This document shows positions 2,283 to 64,000 of a stretch of DNA of 64,000 nt, piece by piece; position 1 is the first letter of the stretch; each line of letters begins with the position of its first letter. The translations under genes were made by a program, and so were the position numbers. Origin of the DNA: a virus (Duplodnaviria; Heunggongvirae; Uroviricota; Caudoviricetes). A model generated the notes under the pieces. The model was given only the letters and a program-made list of their open reading frames with translations. It was not told the DNA's origin and searched no databases. Where the stretch lies: positions 9,241 through 73,240 of IMG/VR virus record IMGVR_UViG_2562617057_000010, one strand, 5' to 3'.

Positions 2283-4364
2283 TCACCCCGCTGCCAGTTC
2301 GCTGTATTCCGCCAGTTGTCCCGGTGTCGCCAGGGTGTCAACGTGCAGTGTGATATCCTGCTTAACGTTGTTATTGGTGACTTTGTCGCCCCGGTTGTTG
2401 CTTATCTGGTGACTTACCGGCCCGCCCTGGATGGCGGCGCTACGGTTGCCAGTGATAAGCTCCGGGGCGGGTGTCGGTGCGACGGTCTGTTGTGCGGTGC
2501 TGATATTGACACCGGGGATTTTGTTGAGCTTCTCTGCTATCCAGTTCCATGTCCCGGTAAAGGCGCTCTTAATGGAATCCCATATGCCGTCAAAGAGCTT
2601 GCCAATTCCAGCTGTGATATTGCCGAATGTGTCGGCCAGCGAGAAATTTTTAAACCAGTTCGTCAGATTGTCCCATCCGGCTTTAATGCTGTTCCATGCA
2701 TCATCAAACCAGCCCACCACAGCGTTAATGACTTTTAGCAGGGCACTGAAAGCTTCCGTGTCCATGATGGCGGCTTTAATACTGTCCCAGTATTTGATAG
2801 CCAGACAGATCCCTACGGCAAGTGCGGCAATGGCGAGAATAATCAGGGTTATGGGACTTATCAGGAGTTGAAGCGCACCGCCTGCGAATGCCGTCGCCAC
2901 GCCCCACAGGCGCATTGCAACCGCGCCCGCACGTAACACTACGTTCCAGGCTACGATCGCTGCTTTACAGATCCCTGCCCAAAGAGCGACCAGCTTTGAC
3001 CACACCCAGACGGCTTTTTCCTGAATCCATAGCCCCATCAGGCCAAGACGGGTTGAAAGCAGGGAGGGGCGTAATAAATCCAGGGTGAAGATTAGTCCTT
3101 TCCATGCGCCTTTCAGCACGCCAGCAATTCCGCTGAGCCCGGTCATGATAAAGCCGAAGGCCCCCATCGTGATACTGGCAAGCGCCCCTGCTGCGGCAAA
3201 GGCGAGGGTCATTGCAGTGATATATCCCAGCCAGCGGGCAATATTGGGGAACGTATCCAGCCATTTCATGAAGGCTTTCCCGCCGGTGATGATTTTTTGC
3301 AGGAACGGGGCAAAGACGGGATCGAGCCGCAGACCGATGCTGACGCGAACCTGCTCCAGTAAAGAATTAACCTGATCCCACGGGTCAACCATCTTTTTCG
3401 CCATTTCGATGGCTTTATCCATGCCTTTGATGTTACCTAATGTATTGATGTTCCGTTTCAGCCCGTCAACATCTCCGGCCAGTAGTTTAATCATGGACAC
3501 CGCTTCATCGCTGCCAAAGGCTTTTTTCAGCAGGTCTGCATCTGCCACTTTTGACAAATCGCCAAACTTTCCTTTAATCAGGTCGATGATACCGGTAATG
3601 CTTCTGGCACTGCCGTCCCGGTTGGTAAAGTTCAGCCCCAGCACTTTTTGCGCATTCCCAATCCCCGCCAGGAATGATTTATATTTGGTTCCCGCCTCGC
3701 TGCCTGACATGGTGGACTGGAGCTGTCCCAGTACGGCGAACTGTTCAGCGGCAGATACCTTCATTGCCTGCGCGTTGGCACCCAGCGCAGTAAAGGCAGC
3801 AGACATTTCATTACCGGTAGTTTTGAACACCTGAACGGCGGTTGCGGTCTGCCCGGCAATTTGTTCAACCCACTGCGTGCGCCCCATCTTCTCTGCGGTA
3901 TTTTTAAAAACACCGTACATGGTGCCCATATAGTTAGTAATGGTGGCCGTGTCTGATTTGGTGGCTTTGGCGAGAATGGCGGATGCTTCAGTAAATTTTG
4001 GCAGTTCGTCACCCTGAAGTCCTGCGATGGCGGACTGGATATCGTAGGCGCTGCGGACGAAATTGCTGGCGCTTTCGCCGTAGTTAATGGCAAACGTCTG
4101 TGAAGTTTTACGCAGCTGATCGAGTGTTTTATTTGCCACATCCAGCGAGCTGACTTCGGCCAGCGCGGCTTCCATGTCGCGGGCGGGGTTGACCAGTCCT
4201 TTTATTCCCTGAGCAGCCCCCCATAACCCGGCCACACCAAAACCGAGACGTTTAAAGTCGGCTGTTGCCTTGTCAGCAAATCCGGTCACAGCCGATTGCG
4301 CCTGTTTTAAGGGTCTCGTCAGCTTATCAACCAGACTTAGCGTAAAATCAAGTTCAGCAGCCAT
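2283..4364 (-). CDS. tail tape measure protein
   Basis: 693-aa ORF with Ala/Gly-rich N-half and long hydrophobic core (LAFAAAGALASITMGAFGFIMTGLSGIAG...); start ATG overlaps stop of the chaperone -1 frame. Confidence 0.8.
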   Translation of the reverse strand: MAAELDFTLSLVDKLTRPLKQAQSAVTGFADKATADFKRLGFGVAGLWGAAQGIKGLVNPARDMEAALAEVSSLDVANKTLDQLRKTSQTFAINYGESASNFVRSAYDIQSAIAGLQGDELPKFTEASAILAKATKSDTATITNYMGTMYGVFKNTAEKMGRTQWVEQIAGQTATAVQVFKTTGNEMSAAFTALGANAQAMKVSAAEQFAVLGQLQSTMSGSEAGTKYKSFLAGIGNAQKVLGLNFTNRDGSARSITGIIDLIKGKFGDLSKVADADLLKKAFGSDEAVSMIKLLAGDVDGLKRNINTLGNIKGMDKAIEMAKKMVDPWDQVNSLLEQVRVSIGLRLDPVFAPFLQKIITGGKAFMKWLDTFPNIARWLGYITAMTLAFAAAGALASITMGAFGFIMTGLSGIAGVLKGAWKGLIFTLDLLRPSLLSTRLGLMGLWIQEKAVWVWSKLVALWAGICKAAIVAWNVVLRAGAVAMRLWGVATAFAGGALQLLISPITLIILAIAALAVGICLAIKYWDSIKAAIMDTEAFSALLKVINAVVGWFDDAWNSIKAGWDNLTNWFKNFSLADTFGNITAGIGKLFDGIWDSIKSAFTGTWNWIAEKLNKIPGVNISTAQQTVAPTPAPELITGNRSAAIQGGPVSHQISNNRGDKVTNNNVKQDITLHVDTLATPGQLAEYSELAAG

Positions 4365-4851
4365 TACCCACCTTTAAATGCTCTCGCAATGCCGTTATTG
4401 ACGGCAACACTCATGTTTTCGAAATAACGGTTGTCCAGCCAGACCGCAGCGGCAATGTCTTCCGGTGTGTCCTCGCCATCCGGTAGCCAGTGGCGGCGTA
4501 ATACCAGATATTGCGCGTAGCCGTTGCGCTCAATGCCGGACAGTGCCGCCTTTATTTTTTTACGGTGATATCCAGATTGACGGCAAAATCTTCATTGAGT
4601 TTTGCTGCCATCTGAAGGGCTGCTCCCGGGCGGTGAATGAGCTTCTCCAGTTTCTCTTTGTCTTCCGGGTGTACGCAGCGCATCAGGTAGTTTTTGGCTG
4701 GCGCCACCTTGTTATCCATCGTTATTTCATTCACGAACTTGTTGTAGACAGCTTCGGTCGGGGCGAAGCGAATGTCCTCGCCTGCGACGGTCAGGGTGAT
4801 GATGGTGGTATTTTCGTCTTTCATGCTATTTTCCCCGGTGAGTGGTGCCAT
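4364..4851 (-). CDS. tail assembly chaperone, -1 frameshift fusion product (about 161 aa)
   Basis: -1 frame from A AAA AAA site is open for 63 codons (IKAALSGIERNGYAQYLVLRRHWLPDGEDTPEDIAAAVWLDNRYFENMSVAVNNGIARAFKGG) and stops at TAA overlapping the tape measure ATG (TAATG). Confidence 0.45.
4552..4851 (-). CDS. tail assembly chaperone (short, in-frame product)
   Basis: 99-aa ORF directly upstream of tape measure gene; ends ...ITVKK-stop on an A7 run. Confidence 0.6.
   Translation of the reverse strand: MAPLTGENSMKDENTTIITLTVAGEDIRFAPTEAVYNKFVNEITMDNKVAPAKNYLMRCVHPEDKEKLEKLIHRPGAALQMAAKLNEDFAVNLDITVKK
4555..4561 (-). other. slippery heptamer A AAA AAA for programmed -1 ribosomal frameshift
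   Basis: Seven consecutive A on minus strand followed by zero-frame TAA; same site class as dnaX A AAA AAG. Confidence 0.45.
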
Positions 4852-5769: not shown

Positions 5770-6104
5770 TCGTCACTTTTCCCTGCAAATTTCTTTGTGA
5801 TGAACACACCCAGTGCCCGGATATGTTCAACACCAATAAGGCCAATTGCGGCACCGATACCGACGCGCCAGTCTTCGGTCAGCCATGCGACGGGGACCGG
5901 CTTAATGAGGGTGAATGCCGCCACGGCCAGCAGGCAACACAACGGCACCTCAAGCAAAAGACGACGCCAGCTGCGGCCTGTGTAAAACACTCTGAGTGCT
6001 GCAATGACGGCAGTCATCAGCAGACTGTCAAGAGGGATATCACCACGTAACCAGTCTTTGATTATCGCCAGCCAGTCGCTCCAGTTGTGGGGGGTGCTTT
6101 GCAT
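5766..6104 (-). CDS. holin (candidate)
   Basis: 112-aa protein with hydrophobic helices and charged C-terminus (KKFAGKSDE), immediately upstream of and overlapping the endolysin gene. Confidence 0.55.
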   Translation of the reverse strand: MQSTPHNWSDWLAIIKDWLRGDIPLDSLLMTAVIAALRVFYTGRSWRRLLLEVPLCCLLAVAAFTLIKPVPVAWLTEDWRVGIGAAIGLIGVEHIRALGVFITKKFAGKSDE

Positions 6105-6112
6105 TGTCTTTC

Positions 6113-6574
6113 CTATTGGTTCATGATGTCCCGAACATCGGTGGCGCTGAGAACCGGAACACCGTCAATTTTGACGAACTCCGGCGAAGTCACCATAAAT
6201 TTGATTTTATGGCTTATGTTGTCACCGCCCTTGCTGTCGATATTCAGCAGGTTACTGATCAGCAGTTTGCAACCAAAGGCTTCCACCCTGAGTTCTGTCT
6301 TTGCTGCACGGGCAAAGAAGAGAAAGTCGGCTTCTTCGATGTCGCGCCAGCTCCCTGCTTCACGCGCGGCTTCACCAAGAAGCTGGAAGTTAACGGTATC
6401 CAGTTCAATTTCACCGCCGGCTTCCACGTCGCCGCGTACCCAGCCATCAGGTACACCGCGCTCCTGAATGGCTTTGGTGTTGTCGGTAATATCAAGGGTG
6501 GCGGTTTTTACGTGAACGATGCGGCCATTAAATGACGTGTCAAAGCTCATACCACTGATGCGTTCGGTGTTCAT
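6113..6574 (-). CDS. tail tube protein (candidate)
   Basis: 153-aa ORF directly downstream of the sheath-sized gene; assignment by size and position. Confidence 0.5.
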   Translation of the reverse strand: MNTERISGMSFDTSFNGRIVHVKTATLDITDNTKAIQERGVPDGWVRGDVEAGGEIELDTVNFQLLGEAAREAGSWRDIEEADFLFFARAAKTELRVEAFGCKLLISNLLNIDSKGGDNISHKIKFMVTSPEFVKIDGVPVLSATDVRDIMNQ

Positions 6575-6577
6575 GGG

Positions 6578-7702
6578 TTACTCTCCGCTTTCGTCCAGCA
6601 TGATGCTGATGGTGATTTCTTTCGGGCAGTTATACGGGCGAACCACGATCGCAATCTGCACTTTGTCTTTTTCCGGCCATGAGATTTTTACGTCGCCGTC
6701 GTGCGGTGACATGCAAAGGCCAGGGAATACCGTGCCGTTGATTTTCAGGCTCTTTGCGCCGTCGCGCATGGGCTTCGCGAAAAGCTGTTGGTGCGCGGCC
6801 ACACTTGCCGGGGTGGAGTTCAGTGAGCGATCGGCGATTTTTGGGATAGCCAGCAAACGCACCTGACGGGCCATTTCATCGGCAACGCGCAGATATTCGA
6901 TAGCCTGATAATCGCCACCGTCCACATCGAGCGTGACGCCGTCGGCCCAGTAGTAACCTTCGTAGTCGGGATACCACGTTGGTACGCTGAAACGCGCCCT
7001 GTTCAGGGCCCTGATGGTGGCAATGTCCAGTTCGCGCTTGTCGCTGTCCTGCGGTTTATCGTTGCGGCCCATATTGACCAGTGCGCCGGTTGCAACACGG
7101 GCGGGGGAATCAGCAATCGTCACTGATGGATTGCAAAGGCGACCGGCCAGTATCCCCGGTTCATTGCCGAACAGCATCGGGGTAAGCTGCACCGCGTAAG
7201 CGGCAATGCCTTTCTGTAGTCCGGTCATGGCGGTGACGTATTCTGACCACTTCTCGCCTGTTCCGCAGCCGCGAATAGCTAGGATAAACCATGTCCAGCG
7301 CTGGAAGGTGTTATTGAGTTTGCTGCGCAGTTGCTGCGCTTTGTCGATATCGTTACCTGAGGCGTTAGCGCGAACAACGACAACGCCTTCCACCGAGAGG
7401 GTGGCCTGTGCATCCATAACCACATCAGCCCACGTTCGGGTCTGACCAGAAGGCTGGGGTGTCTGCACGGTTGCCAGCCAGATCATGGCATTTTGTCCGG
7501 CATTATCCAGAAACGCCTGCACGTTACTGCGTAACAATGAATCCTTTGTTCCTAACAGCGAGTCAAGATCGGTTTGTGCTGTAACCGGTGTCGGGAGAAT
7601 GGCTTTTGTATGCTCGCCCACCATCAGCAGGGTGCAGGCGATCCCACGCTTGCTTCCGCTGTGGGTGTTGAGCTGATTAATTGTGACCTGTGGAAACGTC
7701 AT
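6578..7702 (-). CDS. tail sheath protein (candidate)
   Basis: 374-aa ORF followed by tube-sized gene, chaperone pair and tape measure; assignment by order and size. Confidence 0.5.
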   Translation of the reverse strand: MTFPQVTINQLNTHSGSKRGIACTLLMVGEHTKAILPTPVTAQTDLDSLLGTKDSLLRSNVQAFLDNAGQNAMIWLATVQTPQPSGQTRTWADVVMDAQATLSVEGVVVVRANASGNDIDKAQQLRSKLNNTFQRWTWFILAIRGCGTGEKWSEYVTAMTGLQKGIAAYAVQLTPMLFGNEPGILAGRLCNPSVTIADSPARVATGALVNMGRNDKPQDSDKRELDIATIRALNRARFSVPTWYPDYEGYYWADGVTLDVDGGDYQAIEYLRVADEMARQVRLLAIPKIADRSLNSTPASVAAHQQLFAKPMRDGAKSLKINGTVFPGLCMSPHDGDVKISWPEKDKVQIAIVVRPYNCPKEITISIMLDESGE

Positions 7703-61263: not shown

Positions 61264-61466
61264 TCTTTTTCTTCTCCCTCCTGAGTGATGATCTCAAGTC
61301 CGCGCATGAAAATGACGTGGGCCATATTGCAGTCAGTGCGAAGCTCTTTCTTTGCCAGGTCCTCTACAGTCTTACGAACTTCTGGTGTCAGACGCAGGGC
61401 GATCGGCCTGCCTTTGAAGGCACCTTTAGGCAATCGTGACTTATGAGCGTGTTGTTCTTGATTCAT
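61260..61466 (-). CDS. ribbon-helix-helix-type small regulator (candidate)
   Basis: 68 aa, first gene divergent from repressor. Confidence 0.4.
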   Translation of the reverse strand: MNQEQHAHKSRLPKGAFKGRPIALRLTPEVRKTVEDLAKKELRTDCNMAHVIFMRGLEIITQEGEEKE

Positions 61467-61509
61467 AGTGATATATTGTGATCCTCTATCAGTTCGTTAA
61501 TGACATTGT

Positions 61510-61527
61510 GGTACGTTTTTGCGTACC
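61510..61527. promoter_or_regulatory. operator-type palindrome in the lysis/lysogeny switch region
   Basis: GGTACG-TTTTTG-CGTACC perfect inverted repeat between divergent regulator genes. Confidence 0.4.
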
Positions 61528-61542
61528 TGTCAAGGTGATTTA

Positions 61543-61921
61543 TATGCATTTAAGTATAGGTGAACGCCTTAGAGAGGAACGTCTCCGCTTAGAATTAAGC
61601 CAAGCTGCTCTTGGTGAGATCGGCGGGGTTAGAAAGCAAGCGCAGCTCCTCTATGAAAAAGGTGAGCGCAATCCAGATACTGCTTACCTTTCTGCGATAT
61701 CAAAGTTCGGGGTGGATATTCAATATGTTGTGGTTGGTGAGCGCTCTGTGTCGGCATTGAGTAATGATGAAAGTGAGCTTTTGTCGCTTTATCGTTCTGC
61801 TCCATTGGCCGTTAAAGCGGCAGCATTGGCAGCTCTTACAGCCGGTAGTTCTGCTTCTGTTTCTGTCAATGTATCAGGCAACAGTAACCGTGTAGCGGGC
61901 GGGGATTATCACGAAAAGTAA
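61543..61921 (+). CDS. C-type immunity repressor (XRE-family HTH)
   Basis: Start at MHLSIGERLREERLRLELSQAALGE (track ORF starts 61478); divergent from early operon, same strand as integrase. Confidence 0.65.
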
Positions 61922-61942
61922 GCTGCGAGAGGAAGGCGGGGT

Positions 61943-62617
61943 ATGGATTTAAACTCAAACGGGGATAAGAATAAAATTGCAGGACGTGATTATAAAGAAA
62001 ATAACGTCCAGATTGAGAGTTTGGATAGTAGCCAGACAATCAATATCAATGTTCCAGCTAAGGCTGGCGAAGAGCGCCCGTTAGTAAAGTCCCAACGTAT
62101 CAGCATTCGAAAACTTGTAAATGCTGTAGCTGAGTCTGAAAACACAGAAACAGTGCCAGTTTGGGTAAAGTTGCACGCTGAACTTGGCGTGAACGGTGTG
62201 AGTGAGATATCAGGTAGTCAGTACAAGGTTGCGTTAAAATTCCTCAACGATTTACTGGCAGAAAGTAAGGAGAAGAAAACAAAAAAAGTTCTTGTCGCTA
62301 AGATCTTGAATAAAACAGAGGCGCAGGATTTGCGCCATAAACTGAATGAACATTGTAGTATTTATTACAAAAACACACGGCTGGATGAATTAAGCCACAA
62401 TCAACTCGTTGAAATTTATGAGTGGATAGAAAAAACAGCTCCCATTGTTTCACCTGAATGTAAAGAGGATATGTCTGTTTCCTTTAATGACAACATCAGA
62501 ACTAGTAATTCTGTTAATAGAACACCATTTATTAAATTGCTGACAACGCATTATTTAGTGTTCATTATCGTATTTGTTGTTGGTTTTGTTGTGGGCGAAA
62601 TCGTTTCAAAAATATGA
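61943..62617 (+). CDS. membrane-anchored hypothetical protein (cargo between repressor and integrase)
   Basis: 224 aa, Lys/Glu-rich, C-terminal TM helix (LVFIIVFVVGFVVGEIV); locally AT-rich DNA. Confidence 0.5.
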   Translation: MDLNSNGDKNKIAGRDYKENNVQIESLDSSQTININVPAKAGEERPLVKSQRISIRKLVNAVAESENTETVPVWVKLHAELGVNGVSEISGSQYKVALKFLNDLLAESKEKKTKKVLVAKILNKTEAQDLRHKLNEHCSIYYKNTRLDELSHNQLVEIYEWIEKTAPIVSPECKEDMSVSFNDNIRTSNSVNRTPFIKLLTTHYLVFIIVFVVGFVVGEIVSKI

Positions 62618-62629
62618 AGTGAGATAGCT

Positions 62630-62964
62630 ATGGGAAATCACAATGAAATTTTGAAAATAGTGCATTGCCAAAAATGTGATTGTTATATACCTAGTACAGA
62701 TACTAATTGCCCTATCTGTGGTTCGAAGTTTGTTTTACTGGTTTTAAAAAAACAGATAAGGACAGGCTAAAAAATTCTGCAATTTCTGCCGGTATGATAG
62801 TTCGCAATGATGTGACTGCAAATCTTCATATTCTTTGCTGTGGCCGCAATGCGGGTCCGAAAAAAATGGAAATAGCAGCATTAAAAGGAACTATGATATT
62901 AACTGAAAGTGAGTTTCTGGATTTTTTAAATTTAGGCGTAATCCCTGACAAATATTGTTCATGA
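62630..62964 (+). pseudogene. zinc-ribbon + BRCT-domain protein gene interrupted by a 1-nt frameshift
   Basis: Frame A 62630-62770 encodes CxxC...CPICG zinc ribbon; frame B 62707-62964 encodes BRCT-like FTGFKKTDKDRLKNSAISAGMIV...ESEFLDFL; restoring one T in the run at 62733-62736 joins them as GSKFVFTGF. Confidence 0.5.
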
Positions 62965-62974
62965 GGGTTGTGAC

Positions 62975-64000
62975 ATGACAGTTCGGCGACTCGCATCAGG
63001 AAAGTGGCTTTGTGAATGTTATCCATATGGGGCAAGCGGAAGGCGTATTCGTAGACAGTTTGCTACAAAAGGTGAGGCGCTTTCTCATGAGCGCCGATTG
63101 ATGGTGCATGCCGATGTTTCAGTGGTTAATAGTTCAAAACGATTGTCTGAGCTTGTTGATATTTGGTACGAGATGCACGGTAAAACATTGACTACGGGTG
63201 AAGAACGGCAGGCTAAGTTGAAGGCTGTTTGCGAAAGGATGGGAGATCCGCTCGTTTCAGAATTTGACCGCAATATGTTTGCTGTTTACCGGAAGCGTCG
63301 GTTATCAGGTGAATGGAGTGCTAATAAGAAAAAGCCAACTAAGGAAGCTACCGTAAATCGTGAGCAGTCATATTTGCACGCTGTTTTTTCTGAGTTAAAG
63401 CGTCTTGGCGCGTGGGCTGGTGAAAATCCTTTAGAAGGTGTGCGCCATTTTAAAGTTAGTGAAAGCGAACTCTCATTTCTGTATGAAGATGAGATTGAGA
63501 GGCTTCTTTCGGTTTGCGATGAATCAGGCAACGCCGATCTTGGTTCTGTTGTTCGTGTATGTCTGGCGACTGGGGCCAGATGGAGTGAGGCTGAAAAATT
63601 AACACAGTCTCAGGTTTTACCGGGACGGATCACATTTACGAATACCAAGAGCAAGAAAAACAGAACCGTCCCGATTTCGGATAACATCCAGAAGCTGTTA
63701 CCCAAACGTCGAGGCCGTCTCTTTTCAAATTGCTATGAAGCTTTTACTTGGGCGCTAAAGAAAGCAAAAATTGAGTTGCCGGAAGGTCAGCGAACTCACG
63801 TTCTCAGGCATACCTTTGCAAGCCACTTTATGATGAATGGGGGGAATATCTTGGTGCTACAGCAGATACTAGGTCATAGTACGATTCTTATGACGATGCG
63901 ATATGCACACTTTGCCCCAGACCACCTTGAGGCTGCGGTAACGCTCAATCCATTAGATCGTATTTACACCAAAAATAGTGGCGATAAAAACGCACTATAG
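62975..64000 (+). CDS. int: tyrosine integrase (P2-type)
   Basis: 341 aa, C-terminal catalytic region HVLRHTFASHFMMNGGNILVLQQILGHSTILMTMRYAHF; stop codon at 63998-64000. Confidence 0.85.
   Translation: MTVRRLASGKWLCECYPYGASGRRIRRQFATKGEALSHERRLMVHADVSVVNSSKRLSELVDIWYEMHGKTLTTGEERQAKLKAVCERMGDPLVSEFDRNMFAVYRKRRLSGEWSANKKKPTKEATVNREQSYLHAVFSELKRLGAWAGENPLEGVRHFKVSESELSFLYEDEIERLLSVCDESGNADLGSVVRVCLATGARWSEAEKLTQSQVLPGRITFTNTKSKKNRTVPISDNIQKLLPKRRGRLFSNCYEAFTWALKKAKIELPEGQRTHVLRHTFASHFMMNGGNILVLQQILGHSTILMTMRYAHFAPDHLEAAVTLNPLDRIYTKNSGDKNAL

Follow-up and report, generated by a model that had tools for sequence, protein, structure and literature searches.

The window, the whole stretch of 64,000 nucleotides that we analysed, carries two overlapping open reading frames (ORFs) between an Flk_N-like gene and an integrase gene. 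ORF A (62630-62770, +; read from the sequence and the ORF list) begins with ATG and encodes 46 aa, MGNHNEILKIVHCQKCDCYIPSTDTNCPICGSKFVLLVLKKQIRTG; ORF B (62707-62964, +; from the ORF list) begins with TTG, encodes 85 aa and lies in the frame of ORF A minus 1. Within the overlap are a run of four T's at 62733-62736 (+) and a run of seven A's at 62746-62752 (+). An initial annotation had read frame A as a zinc ribbon and frame B as a BRCT-like fold, and these assignments, their coordinates and both runs all hold as facts of the sequence, with the BRCT domain passing in Pfam. The upstream gene (61943-62617, +) is intact; its product is a 224-aa Flk_N-like protein that ends in a hydrophobic tail (phrog_5825, E=2e-69). 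PF27202 (Flk_N) was found on the orthologous upstream genes of the prophage loci L002, L013, L014 and L015, and the position of the gene is shared by all relatives. In prophages of E. coli and Salmonella, the BRCT-family gene always follows this gene directly, and the Flk_N-like product has weak similarity to anti-repressor (Ant) PHROGs. The downstream gene (62975-64000, +), also intact, encodes a P2-type tyrosine integrase of 341 aa, whose orthologues carry Int_N and Phage_integrase. The integrase stop codon at 63998-64000 is TAG (341 aa) in the window and in L011, L002, L013, L014 and L015, and a CAG codon, giving 351 aa, takes its place in E. coli FDAARGOS_943 and in six further E. coli assemblies that share the deletion allele (a stop/sense polymorphism). 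Promoter and terminator scans of the locus returned nothing that exceeded shuffled expectation.

The region is 100% identical to the complete genome of E. coli FDAARGOS_943, in which it lies within the lysogeny arm of a P2-like prophage. The gene order there is HTH repressor, 224-aa hypothetical protein, 85-aa BRCT protein (called by PGAP) and phage integrase, with replication endonuclease, ogr, portal and terminase genes further upstream. PGAP (NCBI) annotates ORF B in this genome as the "BRCT domain-containing protein" WP_094185612.1. The allele was base-identical over 62155-63997 in eight E. coli assemblies, including FDAARGOS_943, the sole difference being an SNP at 62537 in L012. Among 5,426 complete E. 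coli genomes, searched by megablast with 62400-63100 and by blastn (11-base words) with 62560-62975, only FDAARGOS_943 matched, and no full-length or L002-type allele was found. A pattern for alternative junctions, TGCCCTATCTGTGG-N0-8-AAGTTTGTTTTACTGG, gave 0 matches in metagenome contigs and 0 in genome contigs; the deletion allele is simply absent from the scanned contig collections. Upstream of about 62155, the carriers L001, L006, L008, L009 and L012 differ from the window (61478-61921, the repressor end and the Flk_N start) by clustered substitutions and an indel, and we read this pattern as a mosaic boundary at about 62155 among prophages that have an identical deletion allele.

The zinc-ribbon and BRCT segments and their intact relatives

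The BRCT domain of ORF B (PF00533) scored 23.3 bits against a Pfam gathering cutoff of 21.3 bits (E=7e-5) and is thus above threshold. The beta-alpha-beta-beta-alpha-beta-alpha fold of BRCT domains was observed in the close homologue P0002 rather than in ORF B itself (AF2, pLDDT >90 over the domain; Foldseek hits to the BRCT domains of RFC1, Rad4 and LigA). The AF2 model of the entire 175-aa P0002 (pLDDT 88) consists of a five-stranded barrel followed by the BRCT domain, with nothing beyond these two domains. In Foldseek, the barrel matched the PafBC WYL domain, and RFC1 (2ebu), Rad4 and a LigA model (9a6z_B) were hits for the BRCT domain; Pfam detected BRCT plus a sub-threshold WYL match and no ligase domain. 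ORF B matched positions 92-167 only of the 167-position profile phrog_2561 (E=4e-26), and the N-terminal barrel with the RTFRKDR motif (positions 1-91) is absent from it; P0002-P0004 cover positions 2-167. A match to phrog_3869, "NAD-dependent DNA ligase", was also obtained (E=8e-7). The phrog_2561 family has members in Escherichia phages 500465-1 and Cartapus, Yersinia phage vB_YpM_MLG42, Vibrio phage PV94 and Mannheimia phage PHL101, with labels that vary among "DNA ligase", "putative exonuclease" and hypothetical; the "DNA ligase" label is a mislabelling that derives from BRCT similarity only. Against PADLOC, the BRCT segment hit the defence-candidate model PDC-S48, which has 411 positions, over the 70 positions at its C-terminus, with E=2e-5 to 7e-7. 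The similarity is at the level of the BRCT domain only and is not evidence for membership, and we rejected the assignment.

The zinc ribbon of ORF A has the motif C13xxC16-x11-C28xxC31. The segment fell below every cutoff of the Pfam zinc-ribbon models, and a tblastn search with the 46-aa ORF A against 50,697 phage records gave zinc-knuckle matches at chance level only (best E=0.3). However, ORF A is homologous to the conserved N-terminus of three proteins of 459-461 aa (P0006, P0155 and P0156), with 4/4 cysteines kept in each, which indicates that it is real coding sequence and not a chance ORF. The segment has the two CxxC knuckles of a zinc ribbon, conserved in these homologues, and the short beta-hairpin appears in the AF2 model of P0156 as two short strands with a pLDDT of 55-70.

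These three proteins were recovered in two steps. With ORF B as the query, exhaustive phmmer against 1.84 billion representatives, listing one representative per 50%-identity cluster, returned 125 representative proteins at E<=1e-10, and most of those inspected have an N-terminal RTFRKDR-type domain before the BRCT domain. The top match was P0006 (459 aa), which shares 90% identity with ORF B over its last 80 residues and whose N-terminus, MRNRKGNLKIVHCQKCDFYMPRSDGICPIC, is the same zinc ribbon as that of ORF A. With residues 1-281 of P0006 as the query, we recovered two further full-length proteins, P0155 (459 aa, Salmonella enterica, "hypothetical protein H1Z67_000112") and P0156 (461 aa), in which the N-terminal HCQKCDCYIPSTDTNCPICGS is identical to the window. 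Each of the three is encoded by a single uninterrupted ORF despite identities of 79-80%. Such proteins of 459-461 aa were found in P2-like prophages of E. coli and Salmonella, and their loci share with the window the order HTH repressor, Flk_N-like 224-aa gene, the gene in question and 341-aa integrase. A literature search on BRCT and WYL domains and on P2-like prophages found nothing relevant on the 459-461-aa protein or the phrog_2561 family.

From N- to C-terminus, the intact protein consists of a zinc ribbon, a membrane helix, a poorly modelled middle, a WYL-like barrel and a BRCT domain. The AF2 model of P0156 is confident for three parts only, namely, a hydrophobic helix (modelled over residues 38-91, with a Kyte-Doolittle hydrophobic stretch at 40-83), the WYL-like barrel (residues 287-335) and the BRCT domain (residues 383-452). 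The middle is poor, with pLDDT <50 for residues 107-161 and 238-274. In all three long genes, the internal ATG that opens the WYL-like+BRCT unit (L013 5844, L014 6844 and L015 6850) is preceded by a strong Shine-Dalgarno sequence (aaaggagaaaaaATG / aaaggagggggaATG), and in the alignment this ATG of the 459/461-codon genes falls where the separate 175-aa gene of L002 starts. From these sequence features, the long ORF has the look of a conserved fusion, and a shorter internal product could come from it as well.

P2-like phages of Escherichia, Yersinia, Vibrio, Burkholderia and Mannheimia carry the WYL-like+BRCT unit, often under the label "DNA ligase", and it is also present near the attachment sites of P2-like prophages in other Enterobacterales. 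We considered and rejected the generalization that the family always lies beside a P2-type integrase, given that only 2/38 GTDB loci (L017 and L032) have one directly downstream; other family loci are at the ogr/tail end of P2-like prophages, presumably beside ssrA. In L021, L023, L027 and L034 (Erwinia, Klebsiella, Tatumella and Citrobacter), the WYL-like+BRCT gene, at around 3900-4500, is located between smpB and the ogr-gpD-gpU-tape-measure end of the prophage, with a gap of ~450 bp on the smpB side in which ssrA is presumed to lie. This placement is on the opposite side of the attachment site compared to the prophage type of the window. The BRCT module is also combined with many N-terminal modules, including another double zinc ribbon (P0072), a conserved "MPSEKxxxILRS..." helical module and membrane helices; the group P0039/P0105/P0123/P0128 together with P0072 provides examples of such varied N-terminal modules. 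Tandem BRCT repeats are present in P0007 (710 aa, 5 stretches). Judged by these sequence arrangements, the BRCT module behaves as a mobile domain.

Homology breaks upstream of the homopolymer runs

By blastn, window 61400-62724 aligns to L015 4764-6101 with 93% identity, and window 62722-64000 aligns to L015 7144-8422 with 94% identity. The same two-block pattern was obtained against L013 and L014, with the left homology ending at 62724-62726. The per-base comparison places a deletion junction at 62722-62725 (+), where the match on the left continues to 62724 and that on the right begins at 62722, an overlap that gives a microhomology of 2-3 nt (TT/TTC). The 65 nt at 62660-62724 are identical to L015. 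The window lacks 1,045 bp that L015 has at about 6102-7146; when L013 serves as the reference, the figure is 1,042 bp. Each of these lengths equals 3n+1, which puts the two ends that remain out of register. In the coordinates of the 461-codon gene, the gap extends from codon 34, just past CPICGS, to codon 382, the F of FEVCFTGF, such that the window is without residues ~35-381, that is, without the membrane helix, the middle region and the WYL-like barrel. Thus, the flanks are collinear with one intact ORF in three relatives, and between them a middle is missing whose length is not divisible by 3. Compared to L002, homology ends at 62619 and resumes at 62722, with 102 bp of the window replacing 309 bp of L002.

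On these alignments, a 5' remnant at 62630-62724 (+; blastn against L015, L013 and L014) retains the native start codon and the first ~32 codons of the 459-461-codon gene, the zinc ribbon. A 3' remnant at 62722-62964 (+; aligned translations, Pfam and profile match) retains the last 80 codons and the stop codon in frame B, which encode the BRCT domain (FEVCFTGFKK...DKYCS). Upstream of the 5' remnant, 62618-62629 (+) is the native intergenic spacer and ribosome-binding region of the intact gene (aaGTGAGatagct), and L013, L014 and L015 have this sequence in front of the ATG of their 459/461-aa genes too.

The initial annotation had proposed instead that a single T was deleted from the run at 62733-62736, and it offered an assembly error in the homopolymer or a slippage-prone site as alternatives. 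Under the one-base model, a compact zinc-ribbon-BRCT gene of about 111 codons would have lost one T, or the run would have been miscounted in assembly. Arithmetically, adding one T does join the frames as proposed, the join would create FVFTGF, a BRCT-like beta1 strand, and the fused sequence is still recognized as BRCT in Pfam. Even so, the T and A runs have the same lengths in L002, L013, L014 and L015 and are read there in frame B. In the intact relatives, the region of the runs is GAAGT[T/C]TGTTTTAC[T/A]GG[T/C]TTTAAAAAAACAG, which frame B translates as EVCFTGFKKT. Both runs are therefore shared features of the intact genes rather than lesions: the T's fall in codons TGT TTT (C F) and the A's in TTT AAA AAA ACA (F K K T), and both are ancestral. 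The syntenic locus L002 (87-91% identity) has an intact 175-codon gene with the same runs, and its GAAGTTTGTTTTACTGGCTTTAAAAAAACAG differs from the window at one base. Homologues of ORF B of 174-186 aa read FEVCFTGFKKTDKDRL, which is frame B continuing upstream of the T run. Given that this frame-B conservation (FEVC) extends upstream of the run, no T was lost, and the join "...CGSKFVFTGF..." never existed. The break in homology, moreover, lies at 62722-62725 and not at the run. Assembly error is excluded, since the allele is identical across eight independent E. coli assemblies. A 111-aa fusion was not found by a word-indexed homology search with the fused protein, which returned BRCT relatives only and missed the P0006 type, making its negatives weak, or by phmmer, which lists one representative per 50%-identity cluster; neither search was sure to list such a protein. 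Because intact orthologues have runs of unchanged length, we consider the one-base model already refuted, and on this comparison we give it practically no chance of being correct. What stands of the proposal is that there was one ancestral gene whose frame was disrupted; the lesion, its position and the reconstructed protein were wrong, with a deletion of ~1,045 bp taking the place of the single base. The suggested look at orthologues for an intact single ORF did yield such ORFs, but they are 459-461 codons long, with a middle of ~1 kb, and their runs are unchanged.

Origin and present reading of the locus

We conclude that the locus is very likely the remnant of one out-of-frame internal deletion of ~1,045 bp in a 461-codon accessory gene of a P2-like prophage and, hence, an ordinary pseudogene remnant. 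The ancestral gene, flanked by the Flk_N-like and integrase genes, would have been part of the lysogeny operon and would have encoded the protein of 459-461 aa. The lineage of the window would then have lost about 1,045 bp between codon 34 and codon 382 across the microhomology of 2-3 nt. As it now reads, ORF A (62630-62770, +) consists of 32 native codons followed by 14 out-of-frame codons (KFVLLVLKKQIRTG) and TAA. The 14-codon tail is the BRCT beta1 region in the wrong frame and has no counterpart in P0006, P0155 or P0156 in the protein alignment. Ribosomes that start at the native ATG at 62630 would be expected to make a 46-aa peptide of 32 zinc-ribbon and 14 nonsense residues and to stop at 62770. 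This ATG retains its native ribosome-binding region, unlike the TTG at 62707, for which inspection of the upstream context (tgattgttatatacctagtacagatactaaTTG) revealed no Shine-Dalgarno sequence. In the PGAP-annotated form of ORF B (62707-62964, +), the 5 leading codons, MPYLW, are zinc-ribbon DNA read out of frame. Given that its only start is a TTG that lies inside the upstream ORF without a Shine-Dalgarno sequence, the BRCT segment is probably translated little or not at all, which makes it most likely that the "BRCT domain-containing protein" of the annotation is a fragment of a pseudogene.

As for direction, the event appears to have been a deletion rather than an insertion. Deletion is far more parsimonious on the sequence comparisons, given that an insertion would have to rebuild a complete gene in frame. 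The BRCT-only state is best regarded as derived, because ORF B covers only positions 92-167 of phrog_2561 and its relatives of 174-186 aa cover all of it, and because most of the inspected homologues have the RTFRKDR-type domain. A consideration against a simple deletion is that the direct parent is not among the sampled full-length alleles: in the BRCT segment, each of them departs from the window at 21-25/240 nt (dS 0.3-0.4), whereas the zinc-ribbon segment is identical to L015. This suggests either that the parent is unsampled or that the junction was formed by illegitimate recombination between two diverged prophages.

We considered whether the scar could still be used. In a recoding model, a -1 ribosomal shift or RNA polymerase slippage at A_AAA_AAA (62746-52) would carry frame A into frame B and produce a zinc-ribbon-BRCT mini-protein of about 110 aa. 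Heptamers of the form A_AAA_AAG and A_AAA_AAC are the programmed -1 frameshift sites of dnaX and of the IS1/IS3 transposases. The run in frame A forms a perfect X_XXY_YYZ slippery heptamer (TTA AAA AAA), and the stop codon of frame A is only 16 nt past the run. However, the run was inherited unchanged from the intact gene, in which it is ordinary in-frame coding for F-K-K-T, and it was thus not selected for slippage. Neither of the usual accompaniments was observed: there is no stable RNA structure downstream (62740-62830 folds at -13 kcal/mol, z=0.37, and 118/200 shuffles fold as well), and no Shine-Dalgarno-like element is visible upstream in 62720-62745. The product would read KFVLLVLKK instead of EVCFTGFKK, converting CFTGF into FVLLV, and among 52 relatives the T and G of this motif are invariant, with C and both F's at 90% or more. 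The arrangement in two frames is also not conserved, given that the relatives are single ORFs. The claim of a slippage-prone site is thus without support, and we regard recoding as extremely improbable.

Another model is that of two working small genes. It holds that an 85-aa stand-alone BRCT protein made from the TTG at 62707, possibly along with the 46-aa zinc-ribbon peptide, has been kept as useful to the prophage. The 85-aa coding sequence is called by PGAP, some short relatives consist of BRCT only and have proper starts (P0121, 89 aa; P0089 and P0099, 97 aa), and the allele is present in many E. coli assemblies, for which the index lists 64 blocks. The dN/dS of the BRCT remnant was about 0.13 compared to the intact alleles, with values of 0.00-0.09 among the intact alleles themselves; this value does not demonstrate decay and is compatible with either a recent deletion or continued function. 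Against the model stand the features of the TTG given above, including the leading codons that are frame-shifted zinc-ribbon DNA. Across 62155-63997 the carriers also hardly differ, which means that how many of them exist traces to a single recent ancestor and is uninformative on selection. Moreover, the BRCT remnant has 7 private residue changes, one of them Y->R in GYNAGP, none of which is seen in four intact alleles that otherwise vary very little. Taken together, we judge the model of two working genes to be unlikely. A variant that combines these ideas, in which the scar still expresses a minimal BRCT protein through the A_AAA_AAA shift or the TTG start and this protein acts as a dominant-negative or decoy of the full zinc-ribbon/WYL/BRCT protein, seems very unlikely on the same sequence evidence.

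Discussion

In summary, our analysis points to an internal deletion as the origin of the two frames. The consequences are small. The public annotation can be corrected, given that the 85-aa WP_094185612.1 most likely represents the tail left over from a deleted gene. The locus also illustrates that an apparent homopolymer frameshift can be the scar of a kilobase deletion, and only comparison with relatives tells the two apart. As a by-product, the intact parent was defined as a rare membrane-anchored zinc-ribbon/WYL-like/BRCT protein of 459-461 aa, whose intact gene lies outside the window. The widespread phrog_2561 family near the attachment site of P2-like prophages represents a candidate accessory or sensor gene that may deserve study.

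Compared to the 459-461-aa proteins P0006, P0155 and P0156, the window has the same zinc ribbon, BRCT domain (about 90% identity), position and ribosome-binding region, but it is without residues ~35-381, and its remaining ends are in different frames. With phrog_2561 (~155-185 aa, WYL-like + BRCT), the remnant shares the C-terminal half and the motifs CFTGFKK and NAGPKK; however, ORF B is without the N-terminal WYL-like barrel and is, thus, a fragment and not a full member. As in the -1 sites of dnaX and IS1/IS3, the window has A_AAA_AAA in the upstream frame and the downstream ORF in the -1 frame. It differs from those sites in that there is no stimulatory structure, the heptamer is the inherited Lys-Lys pair of the parent, and the relatives have one frame. 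The modelled BRCT domain of P0002 belongs to the same fold class as those of LigA and RFC1, but in this family the ligase catalytic domains of LigA are absent, and a single BRCT domain is attached instead to sensor-like or membrane modules.
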